Of a stretch of DNA of 64,000 nt, positions 21,715 through 22,399 are shown in pieces; the stretch's first letter is position 1, and each line of letters starts with the position of its first letter. The position numbers and the translations under genes were made by a program. The notes under the pieces are model-generated. The model saw only the letters and a list, made by a program, of their open reading frames with translations. It made no database searches and had not been told where the DNA came from. Source of the stretch: Escherichia phage vB_Eco_BCPEco_001; sequence record PV295200.1; one strand, given 5' to 3'.

Positions 21715-21944
21715 TGTCTGAACAAACTATTGAACAAAAACTGTCTGCTGAAATCGTAACTCTGAAATCTCGTATTCTTGATACGCAGGACCAAGCGGCT
21801 CGTCTGATGGAAGAATCCAAAATTCTGCAAGGAACTTTGGCTGAAATTGCTTATGCAGTAGGTATCACTGGCGATACTATTAAAGTTGAAGAAATCGTTG
21901 AAGCTGTCAAGAATCTTACTGCTGAATCTGCAGATGAAGAATGA
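21714..21944 (+). CDS. 57A: tail fibre assembly chaperone gp57A
   Basis: 76 aa acidic helical protein immediately after gene 1, as in T4. Confidence 0.6.
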
Positions 21945-22399
21945 TGGAATTTAAAGACTTTTCAACGGGTCTTTATGTAGCAGCTAAGTTTTCAGAATTA
22001 ACACTTGATGCGCTGGAAGAACTTCAGCGCTCTTTACGTGTTCCTAATCCAGTTCCTAGAGAAAAAATTCATTCGACCATATGTTATTCAAGAGTAAATG
22101 TTCCGTATGTTCCATCAAGCGGAAGTTTTGAAGTAGCTTCTTCTGGACATTTAGAAGTGTGGAAAACACAAGATGGATCGACTCTTGTACTTGTGCTAGA
22201 TTCTGAATATCTGCGCTGTCGACACATGTATGCGCGGGCACTAGGTGCTACACACGATTTTGATGATTACACACCGCATATAACATTGTCTTATAATGTT
22301 GGGCCCTTATCATTTAGCGGTGATGTACAAATTCCGGTCGTATTAGATCGTGAATACAAAGAGCCTCTTAAACTCGATTGGGCAGATGATTTAAAATAA
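21941..22399 (+). CDS. 57B: gp57B; 2H phosphoesterase (Acb1-type anti-CBASS nuclease)
   Basis: 152 aa, same size as T4 57B; two H-x-T/S-x motifs (EKIHSTICY and YTPHITLSY) typical of 2H phosphoesterases. Confidence 0.7.

Follow-up and report, generated by a model that had tools for sequence, protein, structure and literature searches.

Identity of the gene downstream of 57A

Which protein is encoded by the small gene that follows the tail-fibre chaperone gene 57A in Escherichia phage vB_Eco_BCPEco_001, and does the region around it serve as a site of anti-defence genes? We addressed this question in a stretch of 64 000 nucleotides of this phage (sequence record PV295200.1; referred to below as the window). 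A sequence-only reading of the same DNA had described a 152-aa protein with HSTI and HITL motifs at 21941–22399, and had assigned this 57B product to the Acb1 anti-CBASS family of 2H phosphoesterases. The listing of open reading frames and a direct reading of the sequence confirmed the description; acb1 (gene 57B) is an uninterrupted ATG-to-TAA frame at exactly 21941–22399 on the + strand, having 152 codons followed by TAA.

In a codon-by-codon comparison with the T4 genome (NC_000866), the product was identical at 152 of 152 residues to T4 gp57B, that is Acb1 (NP_049750.1). This was also the outcome of the alignment to T4 Acb1 that the earlier reading had proposed. At the DNA level, 6 of the 459 positions of the gene differed from T4; all of them are synonymous third-codon changes and none is non-synonymous. 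The Pfam profile of the family, PF23474 (Acb1), matched residues 9–150 over profile positions 1–144 of 144 with a score of 202.7 bits (E = 2.7e-60), the curated cut-off being 27 bits. Residues 9–149 matched the Acb1 of PDB entries 7T26/7T27 (E = 4.2e-62; 68% identity over 141 residues), which are structures of the Erwinia phage FBB1 protein in the apo form and bound to 3'3'-cGAMP, respectively (PMC9117128). The identity to T4 gp57B and the matches to PF23474 and 7T26 support the assignment to the Acb1 family of 2H phosphoesterases, and the ORF is almost certain to encode T4-type Acb1, the Tequatrovirus anti-CBASS 2H phosphoesterase; no feature of the sequence spoke against this. In the narrowest meaning of the term, this gene was known before, since its product has the very sequence of the T4 protein that was characterised as the founding member of the family. 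The earlier remark that this is known biology rather than new was correct.

Two tandem ATGs, at 21941 and 21944, are present at the start of acb1, and a 151-aa form that begins at the second ATG is annotated in some records. The 152-aa form follows the numbering of T4 in RefSeq, and the positions published as H44 and H113 also fit this form. A single-sequence AlphaFold2 model of the protein gave a mean pLDDT of 37.8 and a pTM of 0.31, values too low for the model to support the fold independently. We infer the compact 2H phosphoesterase fold of this protein from homology alone (68% identity to the solved 7T26).

Catalytic and ligand-binding residues

HST is located at residues 44–46 within HSTI, and HIT at residues 113–115 within HITL. 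Two or more H-x-[TS] motifs were found in 15.7% of 20 000 composition-preserving shuffles of the protein. Since chance alone yields such a pair at this frequency, the two HxT/S motifs carry little weight and were rejected as evidence by themselves. As judged from the comparisons described above, the significance of the observation comes from the full-length homology and not from the motif pair.

Codons H44-S45-T46 (22070–22078, + strand) specify one HxT half of the catalytic tetrad, and codons H113-I114-T115 (22277–22285, + strand) specify the other; both were placed from the sequence and the alignment, their roles being known from the T4 protein, in which the H44A/H113A substitution abolishes the activity (PMC9117128). 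The C-terminal lid, as defined in the same study, spans codons 145–152 (LDWADDLK; 22373–22396, + strand), includes W147 and is identical to the T4 lid. All the nine residues named in PMC9117128 (H44, T46, H113, T115, Y12, W74, F107, W147 and E141) are present in the window protein.

We aligned this protein with FBB1 Acb1, with homologues from Proteus, Krischvirus, Acinetobacter, Vibrio and RB43-type phages, and with the aligned part of PDB entry 9Q2G. In this alignment of eight proteins, whose identities range from 68% to 28%, H44, T46, H113, T115 and Y12 were among only 13 invariant columns. The earlier reading had named absence of the catalytic histidine pairs on alignment as the outcome that would speak against Acb1; H44 and H113, together with T46 and T115, were instead present and invariant in the family. 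W74, F107, W147 and E141 were conserved or conservatively replaced in most of the relatives; the RB43-type protein has K aligned at position 147 and the Acinetobacter phage protein has Q aligned at E141. FBB1 Acb1, also annotated with a length of 152 aa, retains the HxT/HxT tetrad, Y12, E141, W147 and the lid. It differs from the T4 and window proteins in having F74 and Y107 in place of W74 and F107, which are conservative aromatic swaps.

A few of the more distant matches deserve mention on their own. The 57B homologue of RB43 (259–882 of the RB43 segment) is 207 aa long and keeps the tetrad; its C-terminus is divergent and extended, and W147 is not conserved. The lid of this homologue may be unlike that of the T4-type Acb1, and perhaps its range of substrates as well. 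Related matches in Klebsiella phages align to residues 10–127 only. A weak Acb1-like tblastn match, with 31% identity to query residues 38–121 (E = 6e-5), was obtained at 401–673 of the Pseudomonas phage psageK9 segment, within the C-terminal region of a ∼600-aa protein that is labelled hypothetical. This match may reflect a 2H domain fused to the larger protein or may be due to chance, and it was omitted from the Acb1 alignment.

Activity of the identical T4 protein and alternative roles

What we ascribe to the window protein in chemistry, range of substrates and requirement in vivo was shown by others with the identical T4 protein. Activity-guided fractionation of the cGAMP-cleaving activity of T4-infected lysate led to the 57B product (NP_049750.1), which Hobbs et al. 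(2022) named Acb1; the activity shows at ∼15 min into infection and is lost from Δacb1 lysate (PMC9117128). The protein cleaves 3'3'-cGAMP and cAAA 3' of adenosine in a metal-independent manner, and does not cleave cGG, cA4 or 3'2'-cGAMP (PMC9117128). It was described as having a compact 2H phosphoesterase fold, in which the HxT/HxT tetrad H44/T46/H113/T115 carries out metal-independent acid-base catalysis via a cyclic-phosphate intermediate, Y12, W74, F107 and W147 stack the bases, E141 recognises the N6 of adenine, and residues 145–152 form the lid (PMC9117128). T4 Δacb1 grows normally in the absence of CBASS and suffers a >300-fold loss on CBASS-bearing hosts (PMC9117128). In a transposon screen, 57B/acb1 was non-essential on E. 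coli K-12 and was depleted on a CBASS host (bioRxiv 10.1101/2025.11.20.689424).

In the phage studied here, the following sequence of events would be expected. During infection, Acb1 would bind the cyclic di- and trinucleotides made by the CBASS CD-NTases of the host (3'3'-cGAMP, cUA, cAAA and others with at least one adenosine), its Y12, W74, F107 and W147 stacking on the bases, E141 reading the N6 of adenine and the lid shutting over the ligand. The 2'-OH of the strained ligand would then attack the 3'-5' bond over H44/T46/H113/T115, giving a cyclic-phosphate intermediate and subsequently a linear 3'-phosphate product. As the ligand would be cleaved by Acb1, the CBASS effector would never be activated and abortive infection would be averted.

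The physiologically relevant targets of Acb1 in the hosts of this phage may also include type III CRISPR systems that signal through cA3, and the same activity may be a liability when the depletion of cA3 triggers type II Panoptes. We regard this additional role as a real possibility, somewhat short of an even chance. Acb1 cleaves cAAA, and evasion of type III CRISPR was suggested by Hobbs et al. (PMC9117128); that evasion is a suggestion in the literature on which the window sequence has no bearing. As to the liability, type II Panoptes restricts the Acb1-encoding phages Bas35–37, whose escapers carry mutations in acb1 (PMC13577387), whereas the defence of type I Panoptes against T4 is independent of acb1 (PMC12657218). 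A role of this kind adds to the anti-CBASS function and does not compete with it.

The 2H fold is common to Acb1 and the LigT enzymes, and the gene could instead specify a LigT-like 2'-5' RNA ligase or an RNA-end cyclic phosphodiesterase, which might act on the tRNAs encoded by the cluster nearby or take part in tRNA repair. Such a role would agree with the description of PHROG 755 as 'RNA ligase', a product name borne by many records, RefSeq included, and with the location of acb1 ∼1.7 kb from a cluster of eight tRNA genes. We consider it very improbable. The LigT / 2'-5' RNA ligase superfamily has the two HxT/S motifs in common with Acb1 and differs from it in substrates and biology, and its Pfam profile 2_5_RNA_ligase2 (PF13563) matched only residues 81–123 of the window protein, at 13 bits (E = 0.11), which lies below its gathering threshold (27 bits), as against 202.7 bits for the Acb1 profile. 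Moreover, it was as a cGAMP-cleaving activity that the identical T4 protein was purified, and acb1 is dispensable without CBASS (PMC9117128; bioRxiv 10.1101/2025.11.20.689424). The name 'RNA ligase' is older than the characterisation of 2022 and goes back to a distant 2H similarity.

That the window carries a decaying or inactivated copy is a negligible prospect, which the sequence itself refutes; silencing would now require a regulatory defect. Loss-of-function alleles of acb1, both natural and selected, do exist, as in phage Bas43, where a nonsense mutation allows escape from Panoptes (PMC13577387), but here the ORF is unbroken, the functional residues are all intact and each of the six differences from T4 is synonymous.

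Other enzymes that counter cyclic-nucleotide signalling

T4-type Acb1, our preferred assignment, has counterparts outside phages. According to PMC12064943, which summarises Hobbs et al. (Cell), the poxvirus cGAMP phosphodiesterases have a like phosphoesterase fold, active-site residues that can be aligned with those of Acb1, and the ability to degrade cGAMP immune signals; in a phage, the gene from the poxvirus can take over the function of acb1. The two groups differ, in that account, in the position of the lid (N-terminal in the poxvirus enzymes, C-terminal in Acb1) and in the host pathway that is countered (cGAS-STING and CBASS, respectively). Acb2 (Vs.4 of T4), a protein unrelated to Acb1, counters CBASS too; it is a sponge that sequesters the cyclic nucleotides with no cleavage (PMC10312549).

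An Acb2 (Vs.4) homologue was found in the window at 32152–32418 (+ strand), ∼10 kb from acb1, its product being 97.7% identical to the T4 protein. By homology, the phage encodes both the known T4 anti-CBASS proteins, Acb1 and Acb2. As it carries both, it should resist many CBASS systems, and it should be exposed to depletion-sensing guards such as Panoptes; this is of use for predicting the host range of a therapeutic-type Tequatrovirus.

As a discovery the gene means little, its product being identical to the founding member that was studied biochemically, structurally and genetically. Its use lies also in annotation. Most of the examined phage records with acb1 name the product 'RNA ligase' or 'hypothetical protein', and no curated NCBIfam model matched the window protein, NCBIfam being the library applied by NCBI to the genomes of bacteria and archaea.

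Gene neighbourhood and expression signals

The order of the genes in this region is gp3 (tail), gp1 (dNMP kinase), 57A, 57B, two internal-protein (ip) genes, the homologues of trna.4, trna.3 and trna.2, and the cluster of eight tRNA genes. T4 has the same order, in the reverse orientation. Gene 57A (21714–21944, + strand; Pfam GP57, PF17594, at 3.9e-50; PHROG 1002) adjoins acb1 upstream, and its TGA stop codon overlaps the acb1 start codon as ATGA, which is the same arrangement as in T4. Even Krischvirus and Vibrio phages have 57A paired with 57B. The T4 acb1 gene has the same left neighbours (3, 1 and 57A), the same overlap and an identical downstream intergenic promoter cassette; the window differs from T4 in the six synonymous changes, in a 57A lacking 4 codons, and in having two genes, ip5 and an ip6-like one, where T4 has ipI. 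The product of 57A is 76 aa long compared to 80 aa in T4, the four codons (AKDE) being deleted directly before the acb1 start and the ATGA overlap being kept. The best DNA match of the segment 20300–24300 was Shigella phage SHFML-11 (99.3%). On these comparisons, the window is assigned to a Tequatrovirus other than T4.

We infer that the expression of acb1 in this phage follows that in T4. The non-coding sequences upstream and downstream of the gene are conserved with T4, as is the ATGA coupling to 57A. A convincing promoter dedicated to acb1 was not found, the promoter-like matches being at chance level; scanning of 20200–24200 yielded 14 sigma-70-type promoters compared to 14.5 expected from shuffles, and 1 terminator compared to 2.0 expected. 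The T4 late-promoter motif TATAAATA occurred 12 times in the window against 11.4 expected. One of these copies, which lies within gene 1 (21351), is also found in T4; with the motif count at chance, a function cannot be called for it.

The internal-protein locus and its repeated cassette

The sequence-only reading had further described the neighbourhood of 57B and the internal-protein locus as an anti-defence hotspot. This description has a basis in print. T4 Acb1 adjoins ipI and fits anti-defence islands, according to Hobbs et al. (PMC9117128), and a different GmrSD enzyme is blocked by each of Ip1, Ip2 and Ip3, the ip site being called a genomic hotspot (PMC12373910). It is not new, and the phage studied here lacks ipI and has ip5 and an ip6-like gene in its place. 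The label is reasonable in general and is an extrapolation for the cassettes of this particular phage because Ip1, Ip2 and Ip3 are the only Ips with identified targets (2025 paper, PMC12373910), and we found in the literature no anti-defence function that had been tested for either ip5 or the ip6-like protein.

The ip5 gene (22473–22730, + strand; PHROG 3499), which encodes an internal (injected) head protein, occupies the slot of T4 ipI, and its product is 100% identical to the Ip5 proteins of vB_SsoM_113 and of RB15 (Z35082). The second internal-protein gene (22807–23040, + strand; PHROG 8111; leader MKTFKEFIAE) is ip6-like, its product being 76% identical to that of a gene annotated ip6 in phage VR26. 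The ip5 and ip6-like products and T4 IPI have only an N-terminal leader, MKTFKEF...E, in common. In vB_SsoM_113, whose acb1 DNA is 99.1% identical to that of the window, the second slot is occupied by an unrelated gene with which only a 10-aa leader, MK(T/S)FKEFIAE, is common; cassettes are therefore swapped between very close relatives. Acb1 at least 95% identical to the window protein was found in 502 phage records (1485 records matched overall), compared to 250 records for Ip5 at the same level of identity and 178 for the ip6-like protein. Thus, acb1 is a constant feature beside a variable cassette site.

A 71-nt promoter-like cassette (repeat family D1), consisting of promoter-like hexamers in the arrangement TTTACA-17-TACTAT together with a hairpin, is repeated in this locus. 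The first copy is at 22384–22454 (+ strand) and further copies are at 22715–22785 and 23013–23083, their identities to the first being 100%, 86% and 66% in order. One copy each, with the same hexamers, spacing and hairpin, precedes ip5, the ip6-like gene and trna.4. The first copy begins within the final five codons of acb1 and the second within the end of ip5, and both the proteins finish with -DLK. In T4 an identical cassette flanks ipI, but it begins after the ipI stop codon. What is mildly new here is that the ip-locus cassette starts in the last five acb1 codons and is duplicated together with this coding end after ip5.

One might tentatively propose that the 3' end of acb1 serves as the fixed left-hand recombination anchor of a cassette-exchange site for injected anti-restriction genes, although we think this unlikely. 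If true, an invariant anti-CBASS gene would be physically tied to a fast-swapping arsenal of the anti-GmrSD type, and the lid sequence of Acb1 would be constrained. Exchange at repeated sequences in the ip locus had reportedly been proposed already by Repoila et al. (1994), in the original ip-locus paper, and the anchor would then be only a modest extension of that proposal.

The second internal-protein locus of the phage is empty. Where T4 carries ipIII and ipII between e and denV, the window has a 59-bp gap (30082–30140) between e (29587–30081) and denV (30141–30557), and tblastn with T4 IPII and IPIII gave no match anywhere in the window. The denV gene itself is only 78% identical to that of T4, compared to 95–99% for its neighbours.

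Other features of the window

The cluster of eight tRNA genes is located at 24070–25428, as in T4. Its gene with a CAT anticodon (24570–24641) is called tRNA-Met by ARAGORN, and this slot is annotated as tRNA-Ile in the T4 record. A gap of 710 bp before tRNA-Arg corresponds to the slot of the homing-endonuclease gene segB in T4 and SHFML-11. The homologue of T4 vs.8 (30591–31243) matched in two frames, 30591–30710 and 30695–31240, and so did that of vs.5 (31938–32112), at 31938–31988 and 31987–32112. This suggests frameshifts in both genes relative to T4, which may be real or may be sequencing artefacts.
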